From an uncultured Desulfovibrionaceae bacterium (GTDB lineage Bacteria; Desulfobacterota; Desulfovibrionia; Desulfovibrionales; Desulfovibrionaceae): 64,000 nucleotides of DNA. Shown here in pieces: positions 2,141-62,118 of this stretch. The stretch is from assembly GCA_964370015.1 (NCBI GenBank), contig CAYJHD010000001.1, positions 16,884 to 80,883 of the forward strand. Direction: 5' to 3'. A model generated the notes under the pieces. The model searched no databases, was not told the origin of the DNA, and saw nothing but the letters and a program-made list of their open reading frames with translations. Within the stretch, counting starts at the first letter, position 1. Each line of letters begins with the position of its first letter. The position numbers and the translations under genes are program-made.

Positions 2141-2245
2141 AGCTAAAAAATTTATCTCCCTCCTCCTTAAAAATTGCTAAAAATCCTCTCCGTTCCGGCT
2201 TCTGGAATGACACCGTTATACAATTTTAAAAAAAGGAGTCATCCC

Positions 2246-2653
2246 ATGAAAATTTCCATGAAAAAAGCAATGTTGACAGCCCTGCTCTGCTTTATAAATA
2301 CACAAGCTCTAGCCCAAAGCCCCATGCAAGTACAAAAGACAAGTATGGCAGAAGTTAAAATTACCTCTTTACAAAATAACCTTGAAATCTATGCCATAAG
2401 TGTCAATAGGAATAATTGTATGCCCATACTTTCTTTGGATAGAGGGCAAGTTTTGAACTATGGAGATAGCTTCAACGCCATTGCCGTGGGAGAAAAAACC
2501 ACTAAAACCTATTTTTCCAATGAAGTAAGCAACGAAGCCCTGCACCAAATGAACCTCTTCATTAACATGGGTGTGAAGCAATATTGCACCGTCCTTGAAA
2601 TGACCATAGACAGCAGTGCTGGGCAATGGACTTTTTCTTGGGAAAACAAGTAA
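2246..2653 (+). CDS. Small secreted hypothetical protein
   Basis: ORF track 2174..2653; ATG 2246 preferred (AGGAG 2234-2238, 7 nt upstream). MKISMKKAMLTALLCFINTQALAQ looks like a Sec signal peptide. No recognisable domain. Confidence 0.55.
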   Translation: MKISMKKAMLTALLCFINTQALAQSPMQVQKTSMAEVKITSLQNNLEIYAISVNRNNCMPILSLDRGQVLNYGDSFNAIAVGEKTTKTYFSNEVSNEALHQMNLFINMGVKQYCTVLEMTIDSSAGQWTFSWENK

Positions 2654-2658
2654 AAAGC

Positions 2659-3873
2659 ATGAATAAAAATACACAACTGCTTTTCAAAGCCATACGTCAG
2701 GGGCGTCTTGAAAAAGTAAAAATTTTACTTATGAAAGACACAAATATAGAAGCGAGGCTTCCTAATGGATATACACCACTTCTTCATGCAATACGCTTTA
2801 AACAAGAAGAAATTGTTACTTTTTTACTTGGGAGCGATGCTTATATAGAAGCCAGAGAAAATCGTGAATATACCGCCCTGCTCTTGGCTGTAGAAAAAAA
2901 CATGCTCTCCATGGTGCAGTTGTTACTTGAACATGGCGCAGACGCTAATGCACGTAAATATTGTTATGACGGACACGATGAATGTGACCCAAGGCATTGG
3001 TCAGACTCTGCCCTCATCATAGCTGCAAAAAAGAATAATTACCCTATTGTTAAGCTTCTTTTGGAGCATGGGGCAGATGTGAATTTATGTGAAGAATGTG
3101 AGGCGGGAGCTGCTTTGCATTATACCAGTGATCCCCAGATAGTGCGTTTACTTATTGCTTATGGTGCTGATCTTGAAGCAGTGGCTGGCTGGCTTGGAAC
3201 GCCCTTAATGAGTGCTGCCTGTTGCCATAATTATGAAAAAGCAAAAATTCTTCTTGAGCACGGCGTAGATATCTATGCTGTGAATGGTGGAGAAGGAACT
3301 GCTGCTCATGTGGCAGCTAACAGTGGTTGCTTCTCTGTTCTTAAATTACTTTTGGATGCCCAGTATGACCCGCACTATGAAGTCTCACGTACCTTGAGCT
3401 TGCTATGGCATGGAAGTCTTGGCATTTCAGACAAGGACATTCATAAATTATTTAAATTACTATTAACATATGAATACAATGTAAATAAAAAATACAGAGG
3501 AACCCAGGATTTTATGAAGCTTTTGCATTGGCTTCCTCTAACGGTAGCAAAAGAAATTATTGCTTTAGGAGCTGATATTTATGCTGTAGACGATTATGGA
3601 AAAACAGCTTTTGGATATATAGCAAATCATAGCAGAGTAAAGAATGTAAAATATCTTTTTTCTTTAGGAATTAAGATGTCCAAAGCCGACGAAAAAAGCC
3701 TCTTTTTTTGCGTTGAACATGATCAGCTAGAGTTGCTACAAGTTTTTATAGAAAATGGTGCAAATATTCATGCTCTTAACGCGGAAGGTTGTAGCCTGGT
3801 GCAATACGCAAAAAAACTTGAACATGAAGAAATATATACTTATTTAGAAGAGCTTAAAATCTTAAAAGGTTAA
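2659..3873 (+). CDS. Ankyrin-repeat protein
   Basis: ORF track 2626..3873; ATG 2659 is the first Met after the upstream stop. Multiple ankyrin-type repeats, e.g. GYTPLLHAIRFKQEEIVTFLLGSDAYIEA, YTALLLAVEKNMLSMVQLLLEHGADANA, SALIIAAKKNNYPIVKLLLEHGADVN, GTPLMSAACCHNYEKAKILLEHGVDIYA. Confidence 0.85.
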   Translation: MNKNTQLLFKAIRQGRLEKVKILLMKDTNIEARLPNGYTPLLHAIRFKQEEIVTFLLGSDAYIEARENREYTALLLAVEKNMLSMVQLLLEHGADANARKYCYDGHDECDPRHWSDSALIIAAKKNNYPIVKLLLEHGADVNLCEECEAGAALHYTSDPQIVRLLIAYGADLEAVAGWLGTPLMSAACCHNYEKAKILLEHGVDIYAVNGGEGTAAHVAANSGCFSVLKLLLDAQYDPHYEVSRTLSLLWHGSLGISDKDIHKLFKLLLTYEYNVNKKYRGTQDFMKLLHWLPLTVAKEIIALGADIYAVDDYGKTAFGYIANHSRVKNVKYLFSLGIKMSKADEKSLFFCVEHDQLELLQVFIENGANIHALNAEGCSLVQYAKKLEHEEIYTYLEELKILKG

Positions 3874-3878
3874 ACAAA

Positions 3879-4133
3879 ATGAAGAAAATAGATTTTACTA
3901 CCGGAAGAAAAATTTCTTCACCTGATGTAAATATGACTTCCGCTGAGCAAACGCCAAGTGCTGAAGAATTTATCTTTGATGAAACTGACTTTGATTTGCC
4001 TGCCTTTCTTTCTCAACATACCTATGGCAATGAACAACCATTTCCACCTATTCAAAAATATCGTGGCCAAGTCTACGAAAAAAAGGCTTTTGCGGAAATG
4101 ATGCAGAAATATTTTAATAGGAATAAGGGGTGA
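3879..4133 (+). CDS. Hypothetical 84-aa protein
   Basis: ORF 5 nt after the ankyrin stop, same strand. No motif recognised and the RBS is weak. Confidence 0.35.
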   Translation: MKKIDFTTGRKISSPDVNMTSAEQTPSAEEFIFDETDFDLPAFLSQHTYGNEQPFPPIQKYRGQVYEKKAFAEMMQKYFNRNKG

Positions 4134-4298: not shown

Positions 4299-6020
4299 TT
4301 ATTGGCGATGACTGCTTGCTAAAAGTTGGTGCATAGCTTCCCCATGCTGTTTAGCAAGGTTTTCATTCCAGACATTATTATTCTCTTCAGAAAGTTTAAA
4401 CATAAGTAATAATTTAATACTTTCGAGACTTTGCTCGTTTTTCAGTCTATCTTGTAGGCGTCCAAATTTTGTATTTATGGCATCATTACCTTGTGCAGAA
4501 TTGAAGCTAGCTGAAATCATAGCTAAGTTACCAAAGAAATGAACTTGGTCTCCAAATGAACCAGAAGATTGTGGATGCAAATGCTCAATGGAACGATTTT
4601 CCTTGAAAGAGTAATTTTTAATAGCTTTAAACTCATCTTTGTTAAATTTGAATTCATGCCTAGCAATATTTACCTTAATTGGCTCTTTTCCACTGCTCCA
4701 TTTTTTATCAACACATATTTCCCACAAAAGATAATCAAGCTTCCAAAACCAGTACCTTTCAATTTTTCCATAGCACATATCAACAAGTATTGGGAGGGGG
4801 CGATTATCAATTTCTTTAAGATGTTCGAGAGTTAAATCTCCTCCTTCTGACTTTTCATAAGCCTTCAGCACCCATTCTTGGCTTGCAAAAGAACTCACAC
4901 CAAGCATACTTTGATACTGTAATAATTTTCTTTTATTTATGTCTTCGTATTCTGATTCTTCACTATTGTCTTGTGATTTAAGATTAAAACCATTTTCTGT
5001 AATATAAATAATATTGCCATCTAACCATTTTCTGTACTTTTTCATTTTACTAATGAAATATTCTCCAAAAAAACACCTATTATCTATATTTTTTTTAAAA
5101 ATTTCTATAAGTTTATATTGATCCAAAGAAACCTTATCTCCTTTAAACAAAAAATCTGTATAAATTCTAAGAGCATGCAGGATAAAAGTAGACTCAGAAA
5201 CAATAGCTCGAGTTGTACTTTTTGGGCTTTTTTCAGTTGGCTCACTATACATGATATTTTCATCATCGCATTTTAATATATCTATAAAACTTTTTTTATC
5301 AGTGCATTGATTATTATTTTCAGAAATATTATCTTGAGAATATTTTTTTGAAAAATCTATAATCTTATTAAATTTAACTGCATGTTCTTGAAAATATTTC
5401 CCTTTTATAATGTCTTGAGGTTCTAACTGTCTTCCCGTAGCATTGATACGCTCAAAATGTCTATTTAGCTCATGAGGAGTATAGTTAGGATCAAGCTCTG
5501 AGCACAAAAATGTTGCTTGTGCTCGTACAAATGCAAAAAATTCACTTTTTTTGTTAATATTTTCAATAAAAGAATTAAAAGCATTAACAAACTTCCTAGT
5601 TTTCATATTTTTAATTTCATCAAATTTATTTTCAACAATATATTCTATATCTGTTGTGTCATGCTCTCTGCCTACATATTCCATTCGCAGTTCTTTATCA
5701 TTATTAAACAGAAAATCATCAAATTTTGGAGTTTCACCTTCCGCCAAGGCAGCAAAAAGAGTTAAAAATGTCAAACGTTGTTGCCCATCAACAATTTCCC
5801 AAACTTTCGCGTCTTCGCGCTTAACAATTGTTATTATACCTATATAGTAGGGGGTATCTTTCGCTTTTACCGACGCTTTATACAAATCGTCTAACAATTG
5901 ATTTATCTGCTTTTCATCCCATACAAAAAGACGTTGATAAATAGGAATACGATATCGTATACTCTTATTAATATCTTCAGACAATGACGCTATTGTATAT
6001 GAATTATTATTTTGGATCAT
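4299..6020 (-). CDS. DUF262 + DUF1524 (His-Me/HNH-like) protein, GmrSD/BrxU-like type IV restriction enzyme candidate
   Basis: N-terminal IPIYQRLFVWDEKQINQLLDDL and VDGQQRLTFLT (DUF262/ParB-like NTPase). C-terminal SIEHLHPQS ... GNLAMISASFNSAQGN (DUF1524-type nuclease). Very AT-rich coding sequence. Confidence 0.85.
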   Translation of the reverse strand: MIQNNNSYTIASLSEDINKSIRYRIPIYQRLFVWDEKQINQLLDDLYKASVKAKDTPYYIGIITIVKREDAKVWEIVDGQQRLTFLTLFAALAEGETPKFDDFLFNNDKELRMEYVGREHDTTDIEYIVENKFDEIKNMKTRKFVNAFNSFIENINKKSEFFAFVRAQATFLCSELDPNYTPHELNRHFERINATGRQLEPQDIIKGKYFQEHAVKFNKIIDFSKKYSQDNISENNNQCTDKKSFIDILKCDDENIMYSEPTEKSPKSTTRAIVSESTFILHALRIYTDFLFKGDKVSLDQYKLIEIFKKNIDNRCFFGEYFISKMKKYRKWLDGNIIYITENGFNLKSQDNSEESEYEDINKRKLLQYQSMLGVSSFASQEWVLKAYEKSEGGDLTLEHLKEIDNRPLPILVDMCYGKIERYWFWKLDYLLWEICVDKKWSSGKEPIKVNIARHEFKFNKDEFKAIKNYSFKENRSIEHLHPQSSGSFGDQVHFFGNLAMISASFNSAQGNDAINTKFGRLQDRLKNEQSLESIKLLLMFKLSEENNNVWNENLAKQHGEAMHQLLASSHRQ

Positions 6021-7335
6021 TTTTTGGCTCCAAATTTAATATTTTAGCATAATTTTCCACTGGTAAAATATGCTTATTAGGCAAGCATGTAAATAATTCG
6101 TGTAAACTCCTCAAGTAATTTTCTCGCACCCCCTCTGTATTTTCAGAAATATAACGATATTCCAATTTCAAACAGTGTACAAAGAGTACGCTTGGATTTG
6201 TAGAGGTATCAATAATTTGAACAAGATCTTGGAAAACATTTTGAGTATGAATAAAATCCTTCCGAACATAATTTTCATTACGTAATTCTGAAATTCTGTA
6301 AGCAATACAAAATAAAGCCTCAGAAAGATAATACTCACCAAATTTTAAATAAAATAAAAATGTAATAGCTTTAATAGCATTACAAAGAACACCATTACTA
6401 TGATTACGTAACTTTTTTTCTAGTTCTTTAATATCTTCAAAGTTTTCAAAAATATCTAATCTTAGCCTATGCTCATCAACAAATTCAAAAAAATCTATTC
6501 CACCATTAAAAATGGAATTATATTGCGTAAGAGTTGGTGCTACAGATATATTATCCATAATGCTATATTTTACAGAATAATGTTCAAATAGAAGGCGTCT
6601 TCCGTACTTATCTGGCTCAACATATGGCTTATCTTTGTAACTCCAATTACGCAATCTATACAGCATATAGTTAAGCAATTCTTCCTGTCTGTTTTCATCC
6701 ATTAAATTCCACTTACTCGCTATAAGACCAGATAAGTGATCAGGAACATAGCGTAAATGATGCGTTTTTAATAAATCATAGTCAGAAAGCTGCTTACCTG
6801 TTGCATTTGTAGCATTAAAAAATCTATACGCGAGATCTTCTGGCTCATCATTCGGAATAGTCACAAGGCAAACTTTAATTTCATCTAAAAAAAACTGTAA
6901 AACTTTGTCTTTTCCAAGAAACCACATTTCAATTGTTTTTAAAGCTCTAATAATATATCCTATATGCTCTTTTGATATATTTTCAGTTTCTGATATATCA
7001 CTTTGTAACAATGGTACACATTCATCCCCTTTCTCATTGCTAATGTAGATTAAAATTGAAAGAGTTATTAGTCTTTGTTGCCCATCAATAATGGAAAGTT
7101 CATCTTTTTCTCCCTGTTTTACAATAATAGTCCCCAGATGAAATGATGCGTTACTAGCATTTTTATGATTATAAATATCATCTAGCAAAGCAACAATATT
7201 TTCACTACGCCAACAATATCCTCGTTGATAGGCAGGAATACTAAGAGTTTTGAGAAGTAGCTTTTTTAATAATATGGTATCACAGGAAACTTGACTAGGA
7301 TTTGAGTTATTAGATAAAGAAATTTGATTTGACAT
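6007..7335 (-). CDS. DUF262 domain protein without recognisable nuclease domain
   Basis: ORF track 6007..7353; ATG 7335 preferred (GGAG 5 nt upstream). IPAYQRGYCWRSENIVALLDDI and IDGQQRLITLS. No HNH/DUF1524 motif seen downstream. 14-nt overlap with the next gene. Confidence 0.8.
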   Translation of the reverse strand: MSNQISLSNNSNPSQVSCDTILLKKLLLKTLSIPAYQRGYCWRSENIVALLDDIYNHKNASNASFHLGTIIVKQGEKDELSIIDGQQRLITLSILIYISNEKGDECVPLLQSDISETENISKEHIGYIIRALKTIEMWFLGKDKVLQFFLDEIKVCLVTIPNDEPEDLAYRFFNATNATGKQLSDYDLLKTHHLRYVPDHLSGLIASKWNLMDENRQEELLNYMLYRLRNWSYKDKPYVEPDKYGRRLLFEHYSVKYSIMDNISVAPTLTQYNSIFNGGIDFFEFVDEHRLRLDIFENFEDIKELEKKLRNHSNGVLCNAIKAITFLFYLKFGEYYLSEALFCIAYRISELRNENYVRKDFIHTQNVFQDLVQIIDTSTNPSVLFVHCLKLEYRYISENTEGVRENYLRSLHELFTCLPNKHILPVENYAKILNLEPKNDPK

Positions 7336-7367
7336 AGCCACTCCTAAAATCATAACAATAGAATGTA

Positions 7368-7661
7368 TTATCGTGGAAATTTTGGCCTATACAAAACGTC
7401 CGGTACTGTCAGCACCAAGCACATATTCACACCATCTCCATCCCAAGTAAGCCGCTCTCTGTGGCGTGCTTCCTCAAGTTCACGTTCCCTATGTGCTTTA
7501 CGCACGGCATCACTCAAGGACTCTACTCTAAGAGGATTTCTATAGGGGCAGGTCATAAAAGCTTCGTTTGAAACATATGCCCTTTGTTGTTTACGAAAAG
7601 CCTTATGTCCATTATTACCAGCGAGAAAAATCCCCATAAGGTTGCGCAATATTTTTAGCAC
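7368..7661 (-). CDS. Hypothetical 97-aa protein between the WYL regulator and the DUF262 genes
   Basis: GTG start at 7661 with a G-run immediately upstream. It lies 16 nt after the WYL gene stop. Arg/Glu-rich core RKAHRERELEEARHRER; no family recognised. Coding status unproven. Confidence 0.35.
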   Translation of the reverse strand: MLKILRNLMGIFLAGNNGHKAFRKQQRAYVSNEAFMTCPYRNPLRVESLSDAVRKAHRERELEEARHRERLTWDGDGVNMCLVLTVPDVLYRPKFPR

Positions 7662-7677
7662 AGTCCCCCCTTTTTCT

Positions 7678-8688
7678 TTAGTAGCTCTGTGCTAGCATAG
7701 TGACTTGTTTTTTCAGCTCATCCCGCAGCCAATGCGGTTCCAGCACCTTAGCTTTAGCCCCAAAGCTGAACACCCAAGACACAATTTCCGGTGGGCTTTG
7801 AGCGTCAAAATCTAACATCAACGAGCCATCATCTTGCACGGTCATACTTTGTCTATTGCTCCACACCCTATCGTAAATGTAGGCTGCCGTTTCTGCCGCA
7901 AAGAGGATGCGTACTCTAAAAGAATCCCCCTGCATAATGCCAAAGGGGCCTACCTTTGTACTCTCTTGAGCATAAGGCGGTTCTGAAATATGACTAGCAT
8001 CAAGCTCCGTCATCTGTACCTCTTGGCAACGTTGTAAATACAACGATAGTGCATTATCATATTTAGGTTGTGCAGGATGAGCCTCATCCACTTCCCAGCC
8101 ATGAAAAGAAAGACTCTCTCTAAAAGAAATAAGTCTCTTGGGCGCAAAGGCAAATGTTCTGGCAGGCTTGGAAGGGCTACGCTTATAGGTCACCATACAT
8201 ACTTTTTGCTTTTGCGTTGCTTGCAATAAGATGCTGTACTGCTTTTCATAAGACGCATAATCAATATAGCCCTTATGGAAGTTTTTGGCCGCTGCAGCAA
8301 AAGGAGAGAGCAAAGGAGACTCCGGTTTTTCTGCAGTTTGCGATGGGGCATCTCCTAAAAAAGCATTCATCCCTTTAGGCAGCATCTGCAAAAACAGATT
8401 CCGACAAAGATTGAGCTGCATAAGCTCCTTAACCCCAAGATTCAAATCGAGCATGGGCATGGGAGCAAAACGATGATAATGTTCCTTCCCCTTAACTAAA
8501 GGCGTATCCAGCTTGCCATATCCCGAAGCCTCTAATTGCAGTAAAAGACGTGATACTGTCTGCTTAGAGCATTCCAAAATGCGCGCTAGCTCCGTTAAAG
8601 ATGTATAGCTTTCCCCTTGCACCATGAAAAATGTGTACAGGGCTAAAAGCTTTTCACCGGGGCTTTTTTCAGATTTCTTCACTGGCAT
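7678..8688 (-). CDS. HTH-WYL-WCX transcriptional regulator (BrxR/CapW-like architecture)
   Basis: N-terminal wHTH SLTELARILECSKQTVSRLLLQLEASG. Central WYL-type segment VCMVTYKRSPSKPARTFAFAPKRLISFRESLSFHGW. C-terminal FRVRILFAAETAAYIYDRVW...GSLMLDF...WVFSFGAKAKVLEPHWLRDEL. RBS AGGAAGGA upstream of ATG 8688. Confidence 0.8.
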   Translation of the reverse strand: MPVKKSEKSPGEKLLALYTFFMVQGESYTSLTELARILECSKQTVSRLLLQLEASGYGKLDTPLVKGKEHYHRFAPMPMLDLNLGVKELMQLNLCRNLFLQMLPKGMNAFLGDAPSQTAEKPESPLLSPFAAAAKNFHKGYIDYASYEKQYSILLQATQKQKVCMVTYKRSPSKPARTFAFAPKRLISFRESLSFHGWEVDEAHPAQPKYDNALSLYLQRCQEVQMTELDASHISEPPYAQESTKVGPFGIMQGDSFRVRILFAAETAAYIYDRVWSNRQSMTVQDDGSLMLDFDAQSPPEIVSWVFSFGAKAKVLEPHWLRDELKKQVTMLAQSY

Positions 8689-8759
8689 ATTTTTTCCTTC
8701 CTATTGCATTACTAGGTAAAACCTTCTAATTTTTCGGCAGGGGTAAAATATATATAAAC

Positions 8760-8782
8760 ATCGTTCCAAAATACGGAACGAT
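8760..8782. promoter_or_regulatory. Perfect palindrome ATCGTTCC-N7-GGAACGAT, putative WYL-regulator operator
   Basis: Read directly. It lies 72-94 nt upstream of the WYL gene ATG and overlaps AT-rich promoter-like sequence (TATATATA). It is duplicated at 2117-2142. Confidence 0.5.
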
Positions 8783-8831
8783 AATGAAGAAAGTTCAACC
8801 GCTTTTTACTTAAGCTATCCTGAAAAACCAT

Positions 8832-8862
8832 AAAAGGCACTCCCATCACGAGAGTGCCTTTT
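8832..8862. terminator. Hairpin AAAAGGCACTC-N9-GAGTGCCTTTT with A/T runs on both sides
   Basis: Inverted repeat read directly, followed by TTTTGT on plus and by a T-run on minus. No gene ends immediately next to it, so its role is uncertain. Confidence 0.4.
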
Positions 8863-9082
8863 GTATGATTTCTTTTTTACTGAATAGCAAAAATGTATGG
8901 AAAAATTTATGTCATGCATCACGTAAAATTAACGTTTGGCATTCGTATGCTTTATTGCTAAAACATGACAAAAGTTGGAACTTGTGACATATTTATATTC
9001 TTTACACAAAACCTTAACAGTTCGAAAACGCATACTAAGCCCCTGTTCTCTTTCTTTAGTGAAAAACCAGAAATAAGAATGG

Positions 9083-9219
9083 GTGGCACAGAAGTGGCAC
9101 AACGACACTATGCCCTACGTGAGCATAAACGAAAAAATTTATCAAGAGCTTCACAACTCCCATTGATTCACGTCAGCTCACCTTATTTCATCTCCAAAAG
9201 TGGCACAGGAGTGGCACAA
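9083..9219. repeat. Two copies of GTGGCACAGRAGTGGCACAA (four GTGGCACA octamers)
   Basis: 9083-9102 and 9200-9219 differ at one base. They lie between the island and tRNA-Pro. Confidence 0.6.
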
Positions 9220-9230
9220 AACAGTACATA

Positions 9231-9267
9231 ACAGAAAAGGGACTTAAAGCAATTTGCTCTAAGTCCC
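9231..9267 (-). terminator. Rho-independent terminator downstream of tRNA-Pro
   Basis: Stem GGGACTTA (9239-9246) / TAAGTCCC (9260-9267), followed on the minus strand by TTTTCTGT. Confidence 0.55.
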
Positions 9268-9276
9268 TAAAATTTC

Positions 9277-9353
9277 TGGTCGGGATGAAAGGATTTGAAC
9301 CTTCGACCCCTTGAACCCCATTCAAGTGCGCTCCCAGGCTGCGCTACATCCCG
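9277..9353 (-). tRNA. tRNA-Pro, anticodon GGG, CCA encoded
   Basis: Manual cloverleaf: acceptor CGGGATG/CATCCCG, D stem GCGC/GCGC, anticodon stem CTTGA/TCAAG with loop ATGGGGT, T stem GAAGG/CCTTT, T loop TTCAAAT, discriminator A, CCA. 77 nt. Confidence 0.9.
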
Positions 9354-9690
9354 ACGAAGAAGAGTTTTAGGCTAGATGAGCCTTTCTGTCAACAGAAAAA
9401 AAACAAAAATTACATTTTTTTGTAAAACCCACGGAAAAAACTTATCCCTCAATAAAAATCAACTATAAAATCAAGCGAATACAAAACTTCACCTATATTA
9501 CTTCATTACGTTTTTATAAACGAAAAGGTTCATGAAGCAAGCAGTACTACCGTTTTCTATTAAATGTCCTAGCAGCATCAATACACATCTCCAGCACATA
9601 TTCTACTCTACTGTACTTATCTTATGCCCATGAGTTCTTGCGCAGCGCAATGCTTAGAGTCTTTGCATTCACTCCATCCCATTCGTATGA

Positions 9691-10629
9691 TTACAACAAA
9701 GAAAATTGCCTACGCATCACGCTATGGTTTGGACGTTGCGTGATAATGGCATCATCAGGTAACTGCCCCACCAGCAGCTGTGATGTAGGATCGTGCACAC
9801 GCACATTTCGCTTACCCCTTTCATCGCTGCTTAAAGCATAGCAATAAGAACAGCCATTGGCGCAAGAATTATACGTTCCAATTTCAATGCTTTCCACACA
9901 CTGACACTCAGGTCTTTGATGTTTATCGCGCGCAACATCTATGGAGCAACCCAGTATTTTCTCTATAATGTCTTTATCAATACAAGAAGAAGCTTGTACG
10001 CCATGGGCAGACAGGTCACTTTTTTCTGAGCACGTATGGAGTGTGAATCCGAACTCGCGCCCAATGGATGAAAAAGTTTCTGCAATGGCATTCATCATAT
10101 CATAAGAAACACTATACGCAGGTAATTTACCCAACCTATTTTGCATATTCTTATAAATATCCACAAAGCTTATGATACACCTATCGGTACATCCACTCAG
10201 ATGCCTTGCCATATATCTAAAGGCTTTTTCGTGATATTCCACAGTAAAAATACTATCCACCATGATGGGATCATAACGCCACACCATTCTATGCGCACCA
10301 AGTTGCTTACTCAGCTCTTGAAAAGCTTGTAAAAGTCGCACTTTATCGGGTAAATTTCTTTCTACGCTTTTATTATAGGGCGTTATGGTAAATTGAAAAT
10401 AATAAGGATAACCCAAACTATCTATGATGGGCAAGTATTGCAAAAAAGGAAGGGGATTTTTAGTCCAAAAAACAATGCAATCCACAGCTTCTCGCCGTAA
10501 ATCTACCCCATAATAACGCTGAGCATTATAAGGGTTTGGCACAAGAACATGACCTCTTTGCAAAGCATTTACAAACCACTGCCCATAATAGGACGGAATG
10601 TCCGTTCTTCTGCTGGCACTTAGTATCAT
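9691..10629 (-). CDS. DUF1848 family protein with C-terminal Cys cluster (possible Fe-S DNA-repair enzyme)
   Basis: N-terminus MILSASRRTDIPSYYGQWFVNALQRGHVLVPNPYN matches my memory of DUF1848. Cys cluster CQCVESIEIGTYNSCANGCSYCYA. Last gene of the umuDC-ogt-alkD operon. Confidence 0.7.
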   Translation of the reverse strand: MILSASRRTDIPSYYGQWFVNALQRGHVLVPNPYNAQRYYGVDLRREAVDCIVFWTKNPLPFLQYLPIIDSLGYPYYFQFTITPYNKSVERNLPDKVRLLQAFQELSKQLGAHRMVWRYDPIMVDSIFTVEYHEKAFRYMARHLSGCTDRCIISFVDIYKNMQNRLGKLPAYSVSYDMMNAIAETFSSIGREFGFTLHTCSEKSDLSAHGVQASSCIDKDIIEKILGCSIDVARDKHQRPECQCVESIEIGTYNSCANGCSYCYALSSDERGKRNVRVHDPTSQLLVGQLPDDAIITQRPNHSVMRRQFSLL

Positions 10630-10638
10630 AAATAGGTT

Positions 10639-11328
10639 CTATCTTCTCATGAGTTTAATACGTGCTTTGGTCTCAGCATCCACTTTTAACGATTCACGTA
10701 TTTTTTGTAACGATTTATTATACGTGAAATCGTCCAATCTATTTTTTTGCAAAAAAAGCAGAGTGCGTTCAGGAAAGGAGACAAAACACATGGACACAGC
10801 CCAAGCCACAGCCATTTTCACATAATAATCTTCATGTGTTATCTGATTAAACATCTCAAAAAGGCTCTCAAGGCACACCTCTTCTCTAAAGTACATCAAG
10901 CATAAAACCACAGCAAAGCGTATATCATAGGCCTGTGCAGATGCGGCATAAGGTTGCAAAAACTCCCAAAAAATTTCGGGATGTTTTTTTACTATTTTAA
11001 GCTCGGTGCAAAAAGAATCACACAAAGACCAATTGGTGATCTTAGGTACAAAAAAAGCCACATGAGGCAAAATAGTTTGCACATCCACCTTCATATTGCC
11101 AATGATAAGCCCTTTGAGCATGGTTTCTTCAAAGTAGATGTCGCTAGTATGATAAAGATATGCCTCTCCATCTTGCTTGGCAATGCGCTGCGCTATTTTG
11201 CGCAAAAGCGGTATGCGCACGCCCAACAGATTTTCACAGCCGGGAATGAGCGCCGCAGAAAATTTTTGATACTTGGGCTCAGCTAAAGCCAACAGTTCCT
11301 GACGTATGGTATTTTCTAAAGTATGCAT
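10639..11328 (-). CDS. DNA alkylation repair protein (AlkC/AlkD-like HEAT-repeat glycosylase family)
   Basis: 229 aa. LLALAEPKYQKFSAALIPGCENLLGVRIPLLRKIAQRIAK and a helical-repeat character typical of the DNA alkylation repair enzyme family. Confidence 0.75.
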   Translation of the reverse strand: MHTLENTIRQELLALAEPKYQKFSAALIPGCENLLGVRIPLLRKIAQRIAKQDGEAYLYHTSDIYFEETMLKGLIIGNMKVDVQTILPHVAFFVPKITNWSLCDSFCTELKIVKKHPEIFWEFLQPYAASAQAYDIRFAVVLCLMYFREEVCLESLFEMFNQITHEDYYVKMAVAWAVSMCFVSFPERTLLFLQKNRLDDFTYNKSLQKIRESLKVDAETKARIKLMRR

Positions 11329-11336
11329 ACAGCCCC

Positions 11337-11816
11337 CTACTTACAACGCGCTTCCAAAGTCAGTAAATACGCTTTCATTTCCACACCACTGGCATAGCCC
11401 ACCAATTTCCCGCTGGCCCCAATGACACGATGACAAGGCACAATAACACCTATGGGATTTTTATTATTGGCCATCCCCACGGCGCGACATGCTTTTTCAT
11501 TGCCAATGGCCACGGCTATATCTTTATAAGAGCGTGTTTCTCCATAGGGAATATCACATAGCGCCTTCCATACCTTTTGTTGGAACTCTGTTCCTTTACC
11601 GGCATAAGCAAAGGAAAAAACCTTCCTTTCTCCAGCAAAATACTCCAAAAGCTCAGCAAAGACAGCATCGGAAAAGGGGGATTTTTCTCCCATATCTTGC
11701 GTCTCTTGATCTTTTTGCAGAGTCTCTGACAATCTTTTAAAACGCGTTAGCACTTCACCTTCATAACACATTTCAAAAAAGCCAAACTCACAAAGATACA
11801 CAGCTCTTTTTTCCAT
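11337..11816 (-). CDS. ogt: Methylated-DNA--protein-cysteine methyltransferase
   Basis: Active-site PCHRV in IVPCHRVIGASGKLVGY, preceded by IPYGETRSYKDIA. Confidence 0.9.
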   Translation of the reverse strand: MEKRAVYLCEFGFFEMCYEGEVLTRFKRLSETLQKDQETQDMGEKSPFSDAVFAELLEYFAGERKVFSFAYAGKGTEFQQKVWKALCDIPYGETRSYKDIAVAIGNEKACRAVGMANNKNPIGVIVPCHRVIGASGKLVGYASGVEMKAYLLTLEARCK

Positions 11817-11825
11817 ACTATTCCT

Positions 11826-13217
11826 CTAACGACAAAAAGCTCTAGGGATGGCGTCCCAAGAGGTGGTAAATTTAGGAGAGCGGTATTTTTGCCGCATGCG
11901 CCAAGGTGCACTCACGCCTTCACTGGCCTCCACACCTTTTCCTAGGCCCTGCCCCGCGTATTGTAAGGTGTGCTGTCCATAGCGCGCGTTCACTCCATCC
12001 AGTGCTTGCATGAGCTTTTGAGCTCGCTTATTGGCCTGCTCTTGCCCTTGTGATGCCAGTGTTAGCAAAGACCCTTGCTGCGTATGGGCTGATCCTAAAT
12101 CAAAAAGCATAACTCCGGCCTTGGCGTAAATCACACCTTCTTTAAATAAAGCATCCAAGCCACGCATGGCCGTTTGTACCATGATTGTGGTATCATCTGT
12201 GGCATGGGCAAAACGCATTTGCAAGGTTTCATTATAAGGGTGTTCCCCTTCAATGCATCTATGCTTTGAGGCACGAATATGCACAGCCATGCCTCCCGCC
12301 AAAAGTTTTTCTCGGCGTAAGCGCTGCGCGGCATTGACAGTAAAGGTGGTCAGCGCCTCAGCAAGATGCCCCTTGGCATATACGCGTTCCCCAAAGGAGC
12401 GCGAAGAAACCAAGGTATGTCTATGGCTAGGGGCATTTTCTGCGTCAATGCAAGCTATTCCACGCAATTCCATGGCTGTGCGCAAGCCCGTCACCGTCAA
12501 TTTTTTTTGTATCCACGCATCGGGCATATTACGCAAAGCCAAGGCCGTATTCACACCCACCGCCGCAAGCTTTGCCGCTTGACGTCGCCCAATGCCCCAC
12601 ACTTCGCCCACGGGTATACGTGCCAGCAGAGCCTCTTGAGCCGCCGCTTCGACAGGGAATACATACACACCGTGCCCTGCTCCGTGCCCCATTGCTTTCT
12701 GCTGTTCTTTTTTTGCTAAGTGATTGGCAAGCTTAGCCAAGGTGCGCGTGGGGCCTATGCCCACCGACACCGCTATGCCCGTCCACTGCAAAACACGCTG
12801 ACGTATGAGCTGTGCAGCTTCTTGAGCTTGTTTTTGCAAGGGGCCTTCAAAGCGTAAAAAAGCTTCATCTATGGAATATTGCTCCATATGCGGTACCACG
12901 CCTTCCGTCACATCCATAACTCGCTGAGAGATATCACCATACAAAGTATAGTTGGAGGAAAACACCGCCACATTATGTCTTTTTAAAAAGGCACGCGCTT
13001 TAAATTCTGGTTCTGCCATGGGTATGCCTAAGGCTTTGGCCTCGGCGGAGCGCGCCACAATGCATCCATCATTATTGGAAAGCACCACTATGGGCCGCCC
13101 CTGTAAGTCCGGACGAAAAAGCCGCTCACAGGAAGCATAAAAATTATTGCAGTCCATGAGCCCCCAGAGCTGCCCTTGGCCCTGCTCACTGAGTAGCTTA
13201 GAGCTTATGGATGACAT
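11826..13217 (-). CDS. umuC: Y-family translesion DNA polymerase, UmuC-like
   Basis: MDCNNFYASCERLFRPDLQGRPIVVLSNNDGCIVARSAEAKALGI is near-identical in pattern to the E. coli UmuC N-terminus. The true start may be the internal Met at 13157. Confidence 0.9.
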   Translation of the reverse strand: MSSISSKLLSEQGQGQLWGLMDCNNFYASCERLFRPDLQGRPIVVLSNNDGCIVARSAEAKALGIPMAEPEFKARAFLKRHNVAVFSSNYTLYGDISQRVMDVTEGVVPHMEQYSIDEAFLRFEGPLQKQAQEAAQLIRQRVLQWTGIAVSVGIGPTRTLAKLANHLAKKEQQKAMGHGAGHGVYVFPVEAAAQEALLARIPVGEVWGIGRRQAAKLAAVGVNTALALRNMPDAWIQKKLTVTGLRTAMELRGIACIDAENAPSHRHTLVSSRSFGERVYAKGHLAEALTTFTVNAAQRLRREKLLAGGMAVHIRASKHRCIEGEHPYNETLQMRFAHATDDTTIMVQTAMRGLDALFKEGVIYAKAGVMLFDLGSAHTQQGSLLTLASQGQEQANKRAQKLMQALDGVNARYGQHTLQYAGQGLGKGVEASEGVSAPWRMRQKYRSPKFTTSWDAIPRAFCR

Positions 13218-13668
13218 AACTCACCACGCCCCATATGTGCACATGTTCGCGTTCGGTAATATCCACTTCGGGATAGTCGGGATTTTCCGGAAGTAGCCAC
13301 ACACGCCCTTGACGGCGCACCAAACGCTTGACCATAAGTTCTCCGTCCAATGCCGCTATGACCACGCGATTATGCCCGGCCTCCAGCGACCTATCAACAA
13401 TGAGCAAATCCCCATCATGAATGCCGGCATTGATCATGGATTGCCCCTCGGCACGCAAAAAAAACGTAGCCGCAGGATTACGCACCAAATGCGCATGCAA
13501 GTCCAACTTTTGCTCCACATAATCATCGGCCGGCGAAGGAAAGCCCGCCGCCACCGGTGTTAAATATAAGGGCAAACCTCGCTGCATGGATTCTTCTTCA
13601 CTACTCTGCCCCTCGAAGCGCAAACCATGTGCCAGCGGCAATGCATTTTCGTCAAAACAATTCTTCAT
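13198..13668 (-). CDS. umuD: UmuD-like S24 self-cleaving peptidase (Pol V accessory subunit)
   Basis: VAAGFPSPADDYVEQKLDLHAHLVRNPAATFFLRAEGQSMINAGIHDGDLLIVD ... VKRL gives the Ala-Gly site and the Ser/Lys dyad context, as in E. coli UmuD. Confidence 0.85.
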   Translation of the reverse strand: MKNCFDENALPLAHGLRFEGQSSEEESMQRGLPLYLTPVAAGFPSPADDYVEQKLDLHAHLVRNPAATFFLRAEGQSMINAGIHDGDLLIVDRSLEAGHNRVVIAALDGELMVKRLVRRQGRVWLLPENPDYPEVDITEREHVHIWGVVSYVIHKL

Positions 13669-54533: not shown

Positions 54534-55982
54534 CTATCCAGTGGCACTTCGTGATGGGTCTATACTTTTGGCAAGGACATTTTCTATTTGCTGCGCCATG
54601 TCATCTTTAAACATAAGTGTATTACGCTGGGAGTGCGTTTGAGAAGAACCAGCTGTATCATTTGCTGAAGACTTTGTTTTTTCAGATGATGCATTTTTAC
54701 CGTTTTGCTTTTGTTCATTCAAAATACTATCAACCACTTGCCCAAGAAGAGCACCAGTAACCATGGCCTTTTCTTCAGCAATACGTATGATAGAATCTTG
54801 ATTATCTTTAATCTCTACAGAACTTTGCTTTCCGGACATTTGTATACTACTAAAATATGCTGTAGTAATATTGACCGTATTTTCTCCATAGCCACCTTCT
54901 AGAGTCGCTTCCTTTATTTGGTCTAGAGAAATAGTATTATCTCCATCACCTACGACAATATCACCTCTAAAAACGCCAGAACCAATGGAAATTTCATTAT
55001 CTCCATTGCCAACTGTTATGGAGTTAGTGCTATTTTCTGAATCACTTAAGAGTGTGAGAATGGAAATTATATTATCCCCTTCTCCGCCATCAATGGTAAA
55101 ACTACTGGCCGTAAGCGAACCTATTTGAATATTATCGTTACCGTCCCCGCCATGGAGGGTAAGATTTGCAGCTTGCAATGTGCCTATGCTAATACTATCG
55201 TCACCATCTCCGGCACTTATGTCAAGATCACCATGAACCCTAAGACTATGGCTCTCTATGGTGTCATCACCTTCACCAAGGTCGATAGTGAGCTCATCAA
55301 AAACAGTATCGCCAAAAATAATCTCATCATCTCCGGCTCCGGCACTAATGGTGGCAGATTTACTCAGTTGAAATATGACATCATCCCCACCACCGGCGTT
55401 CACGTATGTACCATTGCGATTAATAATGTAATCCTTACCTTCTGTGCCGGTGAGAGGGTCAAAACTACCTCTTTCAGAAGCTATGCGATTACCGTCTTTG
55501 TCATAAGTAACGCGAAGCATATCCGTAACAACAGTTACAGTGCCATCCTCACCTTCGGTTACCCTAAAATTACCATCATTGATAAAGGGTAAAGCAAGTG
55601 TAATACCGCTAGGTAAAGTGAGTTCATTGGCGTCAGGATTGATGGAGAGTTTTCCCCCTGCCAAAGTAGAACCTGCCTCTGCATTCACAAAGGAAATTTT
55701 TGTGCTCACAGCATCCGCAAGGGTTTCCCCCATGGGCCCATTGGAAGTAGTTCGTTTCAATTTATCCGTATTTCGTGCAAGAGCACTTTGTGCTTCCTCT
55801 CCCCATAGACCAACTCTTGAACCTGTATATGCTGTCCCTGAGCTGGCATTTTCAAGAAAATCAAAGCCAAAGCCACTGGATGCACCTGCGCCACCTAAAG
55901 CTTTTGAAGATGCCTGTGTGGAGGGCAAAAAACTTGTCTGATTAGATACACTTGTAACAGTACTCATTATGAGATCCTCCAA
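54534..55982 (-). CDS. Acidic repeat protein with about 10 G-(D/E)-G-D-(D/N)-x-I units, no signal peptide (possible non-Sec secreted, Ca-binding beta-solenoid)
   Basis: AGGGDDVIF, AGAGDDEIIF, LGEGDDTIE, AGDGDDSISI, GGDGNDNIQI, GGEGDNIISI, VGNGDNEISI, VGDGDNTISL and GGYGENTVNI, spaced about 17-22 aa apart. Ser/Thr-rich N- and C-termini. Confidence 0.6.
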   Translation of the reverse strand: MEDLIMSTVTSVSNQTSFLPSTQASSKALGGAGASSGFGFDFLENASSGTAYTGSRVGLWGEEAQSALARNTDKLKRTTSNGPMGETLADAVSTKISFVNAEAGSTLAGGKLSINPDANELTLPSGITLALPFINDGNFRVTEGEDGTVTVVTDMLRVTYDKDGNRIASERGSFDPLTGTEGKDYIINRNGTYVNAGGGDDVIFQLSKSATISAGAGDDEIIFGDTVFDELTIDLGEGDDTIESHSLRVHGDLDISAGDGDDSISIGTLQAANLTLHGGDGNDNIQIGSLTASSFTIDGGEGDNIISILTLLSDSENSTNSITVGNGDNEISIGSGVFRGDIVVGDGDNTISLDQIKEATLEGGYGENTVNITTAYFSSIQMSGKQSSVEIKDNQDSIIRIAEEKAMVTGALLGQVVDSILNEQKQNGKNASSEKTKSSANDTAGSSQTHSQRNTLMFKDDMAQQIENVLAKSIDPSRSATG

Positions 55983-56118
55983 ACCTTACATAAATACAAA
56001 CCCGTTTGGTACGTAAGGAAAAAATTACCGATGAAAGCTATCTCGTTAATTTCATGCAAAATTCACTCCAGATTTACAGGAAAATGAAGCTGAATATTTG
56101 GACGGTTTATCACTGAAA

Positions 56119-56154
56119 CGAAAAAAGGAGACTGTATATAACTACAATCTCCTT
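56119..56154 (-). terminator. Rho-independent terminator after the 197-aa membrane protein gene
   Basis: Minus strand AAGGAGATTGTA-loop-TACAGTCTCCTT followed by TTTTTTCG. Stem arms at 56125-56136 and 56143-56154, with one mismatch. Confidence 0.6.
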
Positions 56155-56343
56155 CATATGTTCCACATTAAACCTGACAACACTATGAATAGTGCCATAA
56201 CTATGTGAATAACACCCAAAATAGAGGTTAACCATGCTTACGCTCTGACGTTTTGAATGAGGCAAGAAAAGTAAAAGAAATTTCACGCTCCACGATAAAT
56301 TGCGTGAAAACTTTTTGTCATTAAAAGCCCAAAAGCATACACT

Positions 56344-56937: not shown

Positions 56938-57033
56938 TGGACACCTCCCGCAAATATCAAATAGTAGTTTTAGACAAAATACTTTTTAAAATATATAAGC
57001 ACCGCCTCATAAAAGACGGTGCCCATAACTTGC

Positions 57034-57645: not shown

Positions 57646-57712
57646 ATCATTCTCCATTTATACTTTTTAGTTACCTACTCCATCGACAAAAGAGCCTTTG
57701 CCGCTCCCCATC

Positions 57713-62092: not shown

Positions 62093-62118
62093 GGAAGAAC
62101 TCCTTACTGGGGTTTAGA

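Follow-up and report, generated by a model that had tools for sequence, protein, structure and literature searches.

A probable WYL-regulated, TgvAB-type two-component restriction module swapped in behind a resident regulator in a Desulfovibrionaceae genome

The locus described here is probably a Type IV (modification-dependent) restriction module of the GmrSD family: a WYL-regulated, TgvAB-type two-component system, swapped in behind a resident regulator. It lies in the window, i.e. the whole 64,000-nt stretch of DNA that was analysed. The locus and its neighbourhood comprise the following features:

2174-3873, plus strand: left flank, with genes for a 159-aa protein and an ankyrin-repeat protein, in synteny with the related contig L082
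3874-4298, no strand: left-hand junction, containing an 84-aa ORF
3879-4133, plus strand: the 84-aa ORF, with no match in Pfam, PADLOC or NCBIfam
4299-6020, minus strand: TgvB-like ORF, 573 aa
6007-7353, minus strand: TgvA-like ORF, 448 aa, overlapping the tgvB-like ORF by 14 nt
7336-7380, minus strand: right-hand cassette junction, AT-rich, with an RBS only and no room for a promoter
7368-7661, minus strand: ORF97, 97 aa, GTG start
7381-7440, and weakly to ~7481, minus strand: likely scar, at the 3' end of ORF97, left by the first gene of the cassette that was replaced
7678-8688, minus strand: WYL regulator ORF, 336 aa
8759-8783, minus strand: inverted repeat ATCGTTCC-N7-GGAACGAT, perfect 8-bp arms
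8832-8862, minus strand: strong terminator-like hairpin, a 14-bp stem followed by a T-run (terminator scan)
9277-9353, minus strand: tRNA-Pro(GGG), next to the locus on the right

The four minus-strand genes are as tightly packed as an earlier note on this DNA had stated, with its ORF positions exact and all gaps or overlaps at 32 nt or less: ORF97 is separated by 16 nt from the WYL gene and by 14 nt from tgvA, or by 32 nt with M7 (7335) as the tgvA start. M7 is likely the true start, giving 442 aa; it is the start of the gene caller's version (P0001), and an RBS, AGGAG, lies ahead of it at 7343-7347.

The TgvA-like and TgvB-like proteins

The 573-aa protein has an N-terminal DUF262 (GmrSD_N) NTPase/sensor domain (Pfam 1.6e-31), and its C-terminal part is, as judged from its motifs, a DUF1524 His-Me-finger nuclease domain: the GmrSD_C/DUF1524 match scores 20.2 bits, below the 23-bit Pfam cut-off, with the motifs intact. 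In an alignment of this protein and 12 homologues, every one with PF07510, the invariant elements are Y28-Q29-R30, D78-G-Q-Q-R82 and F189...N193, together with S477-I-E-H-L-H-P-Q484, F496-G-N-L-A-M-I-S503 and N507/Q510/N512. The 448-aa protein combines GmrSD_N (6.2e-30) with DUF7834 (5.8e-13; 49.7 bits vs a cut-off of 27) in Pfam, and is without a nuclease domain. The earlier note had correctly called DUF262 in both genes and the HTH and WCX domains of the regulator but overlooked DUF7834. Across 64 TgvA-like sequences P40, Q43-R44, D90-G-Q-Q-R94, F178-F179...N183, K196 and H199-L-R201 are invariant. The AF2 model of the protein (pLDDT 86.9, pTM 0.79) has DndI (9jfl_B) and SspE (6jiv) as top fold matches in the PDB. 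The idea of the DUF262-only gene as a decayed duplicate whose NTPase motifs are disrupted is contradicted by these data, because the motifs are intact; what has probably been lost is a reader domain (see below).

TgvAB is a two-gene system of V. cholerae that cuts modified-base phage DNA, requires both TgvA and TgvB for activity and has 1,341 occurrences in 41,142 genomes (PMC11411939; bioRxiv 10.1101/2024.04.05.588314). The V. cholerae TgvA (VC1767, sequence from Table S3 of PMC11411939) shows GmrSD_N and DUF7834 as well (Pfam 3.4e-38). In BLASTP against the first 399 aa of each V. cholerae protein, so that identity covers the DUF262 part only, the window proteins match TgvA at 31% over 236 aa (E 1e-24) and TgvB (VC1766) at 27% over 217 aa (E 8e-14). 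Thus, on sequence grounds, the pairing of a DUF262-only with a DUF262/DUF1524 protein, which had been thought to stand apart from known systems, is already known as the TgvAB architecture, described in 2024. In both, A (DUF262 and DUF7834, no nuclease) precedes B (DUF262 and a DUF1524 His-Me nuclease) in a two-gene operon; the QR, DGQQR and FxxxN motifs occur in both proteins and H...N...N in B. An A-then-B gene pair is found in 42/85 fetched loci, mostly overlapping; all ten A-position proteins sampled in other phyla have GmrSD_N and DUF7834, and the TgvA-like and TgvB-like match lists have at least 13 contigs in common. The window pair differs from TgvAB in its low identity (only 27-31%), in lying outside a type I R-M cluster and behind a WYL regulator instead, in the foreign composition of the cassette, in a shorter B (573 aa, compared to catalytic H and N at 571 and 602 in TgvB), and in that the closest relatives of A have an additional EVE/YTH-like N-terminal domain.

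The single-chain members of the GmrSD family (Eco94GmrSD, BrxU PDB 7p9k, SspE PDB 6jiv and DndI PDB 9jfl) share the DUF262 NTPase/sensor fold and the DUF1524 nuclease chemistry with the window pair, and SspE, DndI and BrxU are recovered with the window proteins in profile and fold searches. Unlike the window pair, these act as one polypeptide (dimers); the window adds a nuclease-less DUF262 protein from a translationally overlapping gene. A second two-protein GmrSD-like system, GrwAB (PMC12409362), likewise has DUF262 in both partners and DUF1524 in one, but by its description GrwB is set apart by its extended C-terminus, which holds several unknown domains instead of DUF7834.

The N-terminal domain present in the closest relatives of the window TgvA-like protein, and absent from the latter, adopts an EVE/YTH-like fold with VcaM4I (PDB 6yex) as its top match (E 4e-6, TMq 0.66), and this modelled fold suggests a modified-base reader. 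It thus resembles the reader fold of EVE-domain enzymes such as VcaM4I; unlike in VcaM4I, it is fused to the DUF262 partner, not directly to a nuclease. The window tgvA probably lost it through 5' truncation.

The WYL regulator and upstream elements

The 336-aa protein shows a WYL domain (PADLOC model, 5.3e-17), a WCX domain (Pfam, 3.9e-17) and weak HTH matches at residues 21-59, by which it is assigned as a resident HTH-WYL-WCX regulator of the BrxR/CapW/DriD class. It has 92 homologues, the window's own excluded, the named ones coming from Desulfovibrionaceae/Desulfovibrio MAGs. As in BrxR, CapW and DriD (Picton et al. 2022 PMC9122601; Blankenchip et al. 2022; Gozzi et al. 2022), a gene for a three-domain WYL protein lies directly upstream of defence genes on the same strand, with an inverted repeat upstream. 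It has no direct sequence match to the BrxR or CapW structures: a profile search of the PDB recovers the WYL-domain regulators 8tp8, 9pfq, 7u02 and 7tzv (E 2.5e-11 to 1e-9) and also PafC, with neither BrxR nor CapW at E <= 1, and its nearest solved relatives are DriD-like. BrxR-family regulators co-localise with type IV restriction (PMC9122601). Picton et al. report no BrxR homologues in the class of the Desulfovibrionaceae at their threshold (PMC9122601), the class to which the present host belongs.

The repeat at 8759-8783 precedes the WYL start codon by 70-95 nt and is a candidate operator, as inferred from its form and place; the terminator scan lists it as a terminator-like hairpin as well. 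The repeat is not conserved upstream of the WYL orthologues in three related loci (L083-L085), and a half-site, TATCGTTCC, is present in L084. The hairpin at 8832-8862 is predicted to insulate the WYL operon from transcription upstream. Neither a repeat of the 3' end of tRNA-Pro(GGG) nor an integrase was found at the locus, so these searches give no support for integration at this tRNA gene.

A cassette swap with a scar

The composition of the window is non-uniform on windowed calculation, with the tgvA-like and tgvB-like genes at 0.30-0.31 GC vs 0.45 +/- 0.05 in the 42 other genes. Gene by gene, GC and GC3 are 0.302 and 0.203 in the tgvA-like gene and 0.308 and 0.226 in the tgvB-like gene, against means of 0.451 (sd 0.047) and 0.439 (sd 0.082) in those 42; both genes thus fall ~3 sd below in GC and GC3 and have the lowest values in the window. 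ORF97 (GC 0.442) and the WYL gene (GC 0.451) are host-like. The counts sampled in the earlier note (10 G+C of 60 at 5041-5100, 29 of 60 at 8161-8220) are exact, and the switch it had placed at 7355-7365 agrees within resolution with the best computed change-point, 7370-7395 (400-nt flanks). On the left, the edge is blurred by the ankyrin gene, whose 3' half is already low in GC. The closest relative of the cassette (L001, 68-70% DNA identity) lies in a contig with GC 0.325. By its foreign composition, the pair is taken to be horizontally acquired.

Synteny points to what was there before. The Desulfovibrionaceae contig L082 carries a WYL orthologue (62% identical) and has kept both left-flank genes: its ankyrin gene matches window 2742-3845 at 65% (blastn), with ankyrin matches in the window flank in Pfam, and its 140-aa protein matches window 2258-2650 (40% over 140 aa, E 4e-30). 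Between its WYL and ankyrin genes, however, L082 has a 220-aa gene and an Mrr-type nuclease gene (Mrr_cat), and no tgvAB. The orthologous WYL gene is followed by PDC-S26 and Mrr_cat in L083 and by type I-E cas genes in L084; short, unrelated ORFs follow it in L083 and L085. The left-hand junction has no similarity to any fetched locus, and the matching L082 spacer holds an N run.

ORF97, for which the earlier note had recognised no family, indeed has none in Pfam, PADLOC or NCBIfam, and phmmer against 1.84 billion (1.84e9) representative proteins returns only the self-match. Its residues 61-94, however, match L082 1166-1267 (tblastn, E 1e-3 in 1.2 Mb), a segment that spans codons 11-44 in the 220-aa gene right after the orthologous WYL gene; the pairwise BLASTP core with the encoded protein is GDGVNMCLVLTVPDVLYRPK / SDAMNMCLALTVPEHMYTPK (E 2e-7). 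At the DNA level, identity to L082 is 43/60 in 7440-7381 vs ~35% on either side; the homology ends at window 7381/7380, matching the composition change-point and stopping 3-4 codons short of the ORF97 stop codon. The match is short: 20-34 aa, 60 nt. Since the last ~20-34 codons correspond to the start of the 220-aa gene and the homology ends at ~7380, ORF97 is most likely left over from the cassette that was replaced, which would explain its lack of a recognisable family, and probably not a functional gene. The scar, the different cassette between the conserved flanks of L082 and the other cassettes behind orthologous WYL genes lend support to the proposal, already made in the earlier note, that a nuclease cassette was swapped in behind a resident regulator; here one of tgvAB type would have replaced a different one behind the WYL gene.

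Alternative explanations

Among other readings, the least improbable, though still unlikely, is that the cassette is a damaged, decaying relic whose target recognition was lost when insertion removed the TgvA reader. The system could be impaired because its tgvA is without a domain common to the whole clade, in which it is the sole short form (NJ tree); the domain it lacks folds like a modified-base reader, and the breakpoint lies ~15-45 nt upstream of the tgvA-like start codon. Against decay, both ORFs are full length to their C-termini with all residues invariant among the 64 and 13 homologues kept, a good RBS precedes M7 and the translational overlap persists; moreover, short TgvA-like forms without the N-terminal domain recur in the family (17/119 close homologues), and V. 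cholerae TgvA, active in experiments, likewise lacks that domain, its DUF262 beginning at residue ~32. There is a slim chance that ORF97, rather than being a scar, encodes a real small protein, for instance one that assists the nuclease pair or regulates it in an antitoxin-like way: its 97-codon frame is unbroken with a coding-like GC1 > GC2 pattern (0.56/0.40/0.37), it fits closely between WYL and tgvA, and the gene caller predicts an 89-aa version (P0334). Yet it has no homologue or family in the searches above, its sole similarity is to the N-terminus of the syntenic 220-aa protein, its GTG start has a poorly spaced G-run instead of an RBS, and the WYL genes of L083 and L085 are also followed by short unrelated ORFs.

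Slimmer still is the chance that WYL and tgvAB arrived as a single mobile three-gene unit, with no swap. HTH-WYL-WCX genes do immediately precede TgvAB-like pairs in several phyla (Streptococcus, Prevotella, Gallibacterium and others), with a gap of 8 nt in Streptococcus infantis (L029) and further cases in L030, L031, L005, L006, L008 and L026. However, the WYL proteins of other phyla are only distantly related (E 1e-7 to 1e-12 vs the profile), whereas the close homologues of the window's own WYL protein (56-62% identity) have other cassettes behind them and the left flank is conserved; further, the WYL gene is host-like in GC with a sharp change-point before the pair, and the scar left by the earlier cassette separates WYL from tgvA. 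AT-richness is common among defence genes, and the adjoining ankyrin gene (GC3 0.29) and several further window genes (GC3 ~0.27-0.31) are low as well; it is nonetheless very improbable that the low GC is a trait intrinsic to the family or a product of selection on defence genes, with no recent transfer, given that the GC3 of the pair (0.20-0.23) is the lowest among 44 window genes, that the abrupt switch coincides with the homology breakpoint, that the pair is wholly absent from the syntenic L082 and that its nearest relative lies in a low-GC contig.

Proposed mode of action

Under the favoured reading of a swapped-in TgvAB-type module, recombination would have replaced the earlier cassette by the incoming tgvAB and removed the 5' ~125 codons of tgvA, which encode the EVE/YTH-like reader in all nearest relatives. 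Between 7354 and 7700 a simple consensus scan detects nothing promoter-like on the minus strand; the cassette, presumably lacking its own promoter, would depend on that of the WYL operon for transcription. If it works as BrxR, CapW and DriD do, the WYL regulator may bind the candidate operator upstream of its own gene and change expression upon sensing a ligand such as ssDNA. As in TgvAB, both DUF262 NTPase domains would be needed to recognise hypermodified phage DNA, which the TgvB-like His-Me nuclease would then cleave.

The TgvAB-type pair and its composition

The locus consists of four minus-strand genes, whose coordinates agree with those given in an earlier note on this DNA:

Genes of the locus and their composition
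4299-6020, minus strand: TgvB-like protein, 573 aa; GC 0.308, GC3 0.226
6007-7353, minus strand: TgvA-like protein, 448 aa; GC 0.302, GC3 0.203
7368-7661, minus strand: ORF97, 97 aa, GTG start; GC 0.442, GC3 0.367
7678-8688, minus strand: WYL regulator, 336 aa; GC 0.451, GC3 0.442
42 other genes of the window, mean (sd): GC 0.451 (0.047), GC3 0.439 (0.082)

The TgvA-like gene lies 5' of the co-oriented TgvB-like gene and overlaps it by 14 nt; gaps of 14 nt and 16 nt separate it from ORF97 and ORF97 from the WYL gene, respectively. With a start at M7 (7335) of the 448-aa gene the gap to ORF97 becomes 32 nt instead of 14; this start has a ribosome-binding site (AGGAG, 7343-7347) and is the one used in the gene caller's 442-aa protein, P0001. 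The composition drop described earlier for the DUF262 pair holds on a per-gene basis, with GC values of 0.302-0.308, the lowest among the window genes, against the 0.451 mean of the 42 other genes; the two sampled G+C counts (10/60 and 29/60) are exact on recomputation. The best GC change-point falls at 7370-7395, and the left GC edge is diffuse because the ankyrin gene is already GC-poor in its 3' half.

Pfam searches recover the GmrSD_N domain in both DUF262 proteins (6.2e-30 in the TgvA-like and 1.6e-31 in the TgvB-like protein). The second domain of the TgvA-like protein is DUF7834 (49.7 bits against a cut-off of 27), with no Pfam match to GmrSD_C; in the TgvB-like protein GmrSD_C is found below threshold (20.2 versus 23 bits). 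The architecture of the former is that of VC1767, the Vibrio cholerae TgvA, in which GmrSD_N is likewise combined with DUF7834 (132.3 bits, E 3.4e-38). In BLASTP comparisons with the first 399 residues of each V. cholerae protein (Table S3 of PMC11411939), the TgvA-like protein is 31% identical to VC1767 over 236 aa (E 1e-24) and the TgvB-like protein 27% identical to VC1766, the V. cholerae TgvB, over 217 aa (E 8e-14). HMMs built from our own alignments detect the same A-then-B adjacency, usually with an overlap, in 42 of the 85 fetched loci, and at least 13 contigs are common to the two lists of homologues. All ten sampled proteins in the A position, from Prevotella, Bifidobacterium, Halomonas, Gallibacterium, Streptococcus, Treponema and others, combine GmrSD_N with DUF7834. 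By these sequence comparisons, the TgvAB-like pair is a conserved module. TgvA-like relatives are encoded on 515 PLSDB plasmids, 464 of them from Klebsiella and 402 predicted to be conjugative, which fits mobility of the module.

The pairing of a DUF262-only protein with a DUF262/DUF1524 protein had been considered architecturally novel; it is already published as TgvAB. In the V. cholerae VPI-2 system both proteins are required, defense is abolished by DGQQR mutants of either protein or by His-Me mutants of TgvB, and the targets are phages with glucosyl- or arabinosyl-hmC (PMC11411939; bioRxiv 10.1101/2024.04.05.588314). The name refers to the placing of the pair inside a type I R-M cluster, with hsd genes on either side; this embedding is not obligatory, since among 41,142 genomes stand-alone pairs numbered 1,341 and embedded ones 79 (PMC11411939). 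Whereas hsd genes flank the V. cholerae pair, the window pair is flanked by the WYL regulator and an ankyrin gene, and a domain search of the neighboring genes found no hsd genes. We also considered assignment to the single-chain GmrSD, BrxU or SspE enzymes, in which DUF262 and DUF1524 form one polypeptide that suffices for restriction, with no dedicated DUF262 partner; the window pair, in contrast, has a conserved, overlapping gene for a DUF262 + DUF7834 partner, and by gene content does not fit this class. We class the window locus as a system of the TgvAB type, combined with a WYL regulator; the system and its association with WYL regulators are both already known.

Among annotation resources, NCBIfam gives no matches for any of the four genes, and the PADLOC matches to the DUF262 genes (HEC-06, Orf5 and SspE) are N-terminal only, since the 2023 release predates TgvAB. 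Exact-sequence look-ups of the window proteins gave no match, and single-sequence PDB searches were near empty, so that profile searches were needed.

Integrity and predicted fold of the two proteins

In an alignment of the TgvB-like protein with 12 homologues, all with PF07510, the motifs Y28-Q-R30, D78-GQQ-R82 and F189/N193 are invariant across the 13 sequences, as are the nuclease motifs of the His-Me finger (H...N...H/N), SIEHLHPQ (477-484), FGNLAMIS (496-503) and N507/Q510/N512. This invariance argues that the nuclease is intact despite its weak Pfam score. In the TgvA-like protein P40, Q43-R44, D90-GQQ-R94, F178-F179/N183, K196 and H199-L-R201 are invariant among 64 sequences. Its AF2 model is confident (pLDDT 86.9, pTM 0.79) and combines a ParB/sulfiredoxin-like domain at the N-terminus with an all-α domain at the C-terminus, with DndI (9jfl_B, E 4e-6) and SspE (6jiv, E 5e-5) as top PDB matches. 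With its motifs invariant and its predicted fold confident, the DUF262-only gene does not have the features of the decayed duplicate that the earlier note had entertained.

The WYL regulator

The 336-aa protein is of the HTH-WYL-WCX type: Pfam detects WCX (62.8 bits) and weak HTH matches at residues 21-59, and the PADLOC WYL model matches residues 146-330 (5.3e-17). The Pfam WYL domain PF13280 is recorded for many of its homologues, which number 92 apart from the window protein; those named are proteins of Desulfovibrionaceae or Desulfovibrio MAGs. A profile search of PDB sequences recovered the WYL regulators 8tp8, 9pfq, 7u02 and 7tzv, which we take to include DriD entries, as well as PafC; no chain labelled BrxR or CapW was recovered at E <= 1. 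WYL regulators of the BrxR class are found upstream of diverse defense systems, most frequently BREX and type IV restriction (PMC9122601), with BLASTP E < 1e-5 to BrxR as the threshold for family membership (Picton et al.). The window regulator shares with BrxR/CapW-type regulators the wHTH-WYL-WCX architecture and the upstream, co-oriented position: its gene lies upstream of the DUF262 pair on the same strand, and a terminator scan found no strong terminator between them. Genes for HTH-WYL-WCX proteins are also found upstream of TgvAB-like pairs in Streptococcus (with gaps of 8, 250 and 582 nt), Prevotella, Gallibacterium, Muribaculaceae and others; thus, the WYL-TgvAB association is recurrent. 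Regulators of the BrxR/CapW type repress their operon by binding an inverted repeat located between promoter and start codon. From reading the sequence and the terminator scan we noted one candidate operator, which is not conserved in orthologous WYL loci:

8759-8783: inverted repeat, ATCGTTCC-N7-GGAACGAT

Probable exchange of the cassette behind the regulator

The earlier note had proposed that a nuclease cassette was swapped in behind a resident regulator. This is well supported by the contigs that carry the four WYL homologues closest in sequence (56-62% identity):

Gene content around the closest WYL homologues
L082 (GCA_964369255.1): WYL, a 220-aa gene (p220), Mrr_cat, then on the other strand ankyrin and 140-aa genes
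L083 (GCA_964372165.1): SpoU, WYL, PDC-S26 (PDDEXK_4, 2e-118), a 143-aa WYL C-terminal fragment, Mrr_cat
L084 (GCA_964368195.1): DrmD-like SNF2, TgvA-like, TgvB-like, LRR protein, WYL, type I-E cas genes
L085 (GCA_964368845.1): SpoU, WYL, unrelated genes

Compared across these homologous loci the effectors differ, namely p220 and Mrr_cat in L082, PDC-S26 in L083 and cas in L084. In L082 the synteny with the window extends to both flanks: by blastn the WYL genes and the ankyrin genes are each 65% identical, and its 140-aa protein matches window 2258-2650 (40%, E 4e-30). No blastn alignment is found between these shared flanks, which enclose a different cassette in L082. No remnants of Mrr_cat or SpoU genes are found in the window. 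TgvAB-like pairs are present in L084 and in L001; the latter contig has the closest tgvAB relative, with 68-70% DNA identity and a contig GC of 0.325, with which a low-GC donor of the cassette fits.

The right-hand breakpoint can be placed through ORF97. A phmmer search of 1.84 billion representative proteins matched only ORF97 itself. In a tblastn search of all fetched loci (1.2 Mb), the single notable match is between its residues 61-94 and L082 1166-1267 (E 1e-3), that is, codons 11-44 of p220, the first gene after the orthologous WYL gene. The pairwise core has 12 of 20 residues identical (E 2e-7), and the reciprocal search agrees. At the DNA level window 7440-7381 is identical to L082 at 43 of 60 positions, with about 35% identity on either side, and the homology ends at 7381/7380, three to four codons before the ORF97 stop and inside the GC change-point. 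From the sequence we therefore conclude that ORF97 is most probably, for the larger part, the 5' remnant of the first gene of an earlier cassette, continuing into the incoming DNA up to a stop codon present there by chance, and that the right breakpoint lies at about 7380. Between this breakpoint and the tgvA start there are about 45 nt of AT-rich DNA with a ribosome-binding site only, and a consensus scan found no minus-strand promoter-like site in 7354-7700; hence, we infer that the cassette is probably transcribed from the WYL operon. In its character, the exchange is an ordinary defense-island event.

Further rearrangements are apparent in the relatives. The 143-aa WYL fragment of L083 (3424-3855), corresponding to the WCX end, matches the WYL profile with E 2e-55, has 68% DNA identity to window 7703-8073 and sits between PDC-S26 and Mrr_cat, downstream of the complete WYL gene. 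This arrangement resembles the scar of a recombination in which a 'WYL + PDC-S26' unit entered a locus that already had 'WYL + Mrr'. In L084 (1585-18441) the SNF2 helicase is DrmD-like (2e-185), the LRR protein is a 574-aa BspA-type protein and the WYL gene lies directly upstream of cas3 of a complete type I-E operon. Genes for a bpMoxR AAA+ ATPase and a VWA-domain protein are found directly 5' of the TgvAB-like pair in L001 (6191-9243) and L008 (4364-7347), two unrelated genomes, and MoxR-VWA modules may be recurrently tied to TgvAB-type restriction.

An N-terminal domain missing from the window TgvA

Most close TgvA-like homologues have about 130 additional residues at the N-terminus, with 102 of 119 reaching a length of 480 aa or more. 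Pfam detects nothing in these extensions. One type is a domain of about 125 aa, for which residues 1-131 of P0002 (L001:10001-10393), the sister of the window protein, gave an AF2 model with pLDDT 91.7. In structure searches this model matches the EVE domain of VcaM4I (6yex, E 4e-6, TMq 0.66), a modification-dependent endonuclease, as well as the archaeal EVE/ASCH-like 2p5d and 2hd9 and many YTH m6A readers. The matches suggest that in the closest relatives a predicted modified-base reader is fused to the nuclease-less partner of the TgvAB-type pair. The same domain is found on P0003-P0009, P0011, P0015, P0019 and others; the window protein is without it. In a neighbor-joining tree the window protein groups with P0002 inside a clade whose other members all have an N-terminal domain, making its loss in the window lineage the parsimonious reading of the sequences. 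Given the position of the breakpoint, a 5' truncation of tgvA at insertion is plausible. The V. cholerae TgvA is naturally without such a domain; thus, its lack does not imply an inactive protein.

A second and commoner class of N-terminal extension (about 150 aa; P0010, P0013, P0020-P0026, P0033, P0038, P0041 and others) has the motifs VHYELIKRG...FVEFHVE..YANGRDEL, and further variants are found on P0008 and P0014. The N-terminus of the TgvA-like family looks like a variable sensor slot. Neither the link to DUF7834 nor these N-domain observations change the classification of the window locus.

The flanks and the rest of the window

The left junction has no similarity to any fetched locus, with Ns at this position in L082. 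It includes one small frame, 5 nt after the ankyrin gene, with no Pfam, PADLOC or NCBIfam family and no similarity to the fetched loci:

3879-4133: 84-aa ORF

On the right, an Rfam E-value scan of 7300-9450 gave the tRNA as its sole match. Integration targeted to this tRNA-Pro was considered and is not supported: the 3' end of the tRNA does not recur as a direct repeat, and a search over 9 kb found no integrase. Between the tRNA and the WYL operon lies a 375-nt stretch (8863-9237), bounded by terminator-like hairpins at 9238-9268 and 8832-8862, with no Rfam family and no convincing ORF. A 20-nt direct repeat, GTGGCACAG[A/G]AGTGGCACAA, occurs in it twice, at 9083-9102 and 9200-9219. Past the tRNA, 9691-13668 (minus strand) is a DNA-damage/repair run of DUF1848 (8e-101), an AlkD-like DNA alkylation repair protein, an Ogt-type methyltransferase, UmuC and UmuD, the last two with a GC of 0.52, noticeably above that of their neighbors. 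Elsewhere, 54534-63975 (minus strand) has five consecutive genes for proteins of 482, 197, 207, 1459 and 618 aa with a somewhat low GC (0.38-0.42) and no Pfam family at E <= 1e-4 (E <= 1e-5 for the 1459-aa gene).

Proposed mechanism and implications

The sequence analysis establishes the homology and domain architecture, the intact motifs, the foreign composition, the synteny and the scar; beyond this, a mechanism may be sketched by analogy. The WYL protein would control a promoter upstream of 8688, with the inverted repeat at 8759-8783 as its candidate operator, and tgvA and tgvB would be co-transcribed and translationally coupled. Both DUF262 NTPase domains would sense hypermodified DNA, which the His-Me nuclease of the TgvB-like protein would then cleave.

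A bolder reading, which we place on the unlikely side, is that in this Desulfovibrionaceae clade the WYL gene is a permanent landing site for nuclease cassettes that lack a promoter: recombination within the gene or immediately behind it would swap the effector and keep the sensor-regulator, the same event trimming the EVE-like reader off TgvA. If so, ORF97 in the window and the duplicated 143-aa piece of the WYL C-terminus in L083 would be scars of such exchanges; the unrelated effectors TgvAB, p220 + Mrr, PDC-S26 and type I-E Cas would all come under one ligand-sensing switch; and the trimming of TgvA would be a natural test of whether TgvAB needs a dedicated base reader.

With the window locus the TgvAB family gains a divergent member from the Desulfovibrionaceae, and the base-level breakpoint shows how one defense effector cassette probably gave way to another while the WYL regulator was retained. 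A literature search found no mention of DUF7834 and no TgvAB structure; DUF7834 emerges as the C-terminal hallmark of the TgvA-type partners. That many TgvA-like proteins have variable N-terminal domains, one of them EVE/YTH-like, bears on how GmrSD-like enzymes recognize modified DNA.
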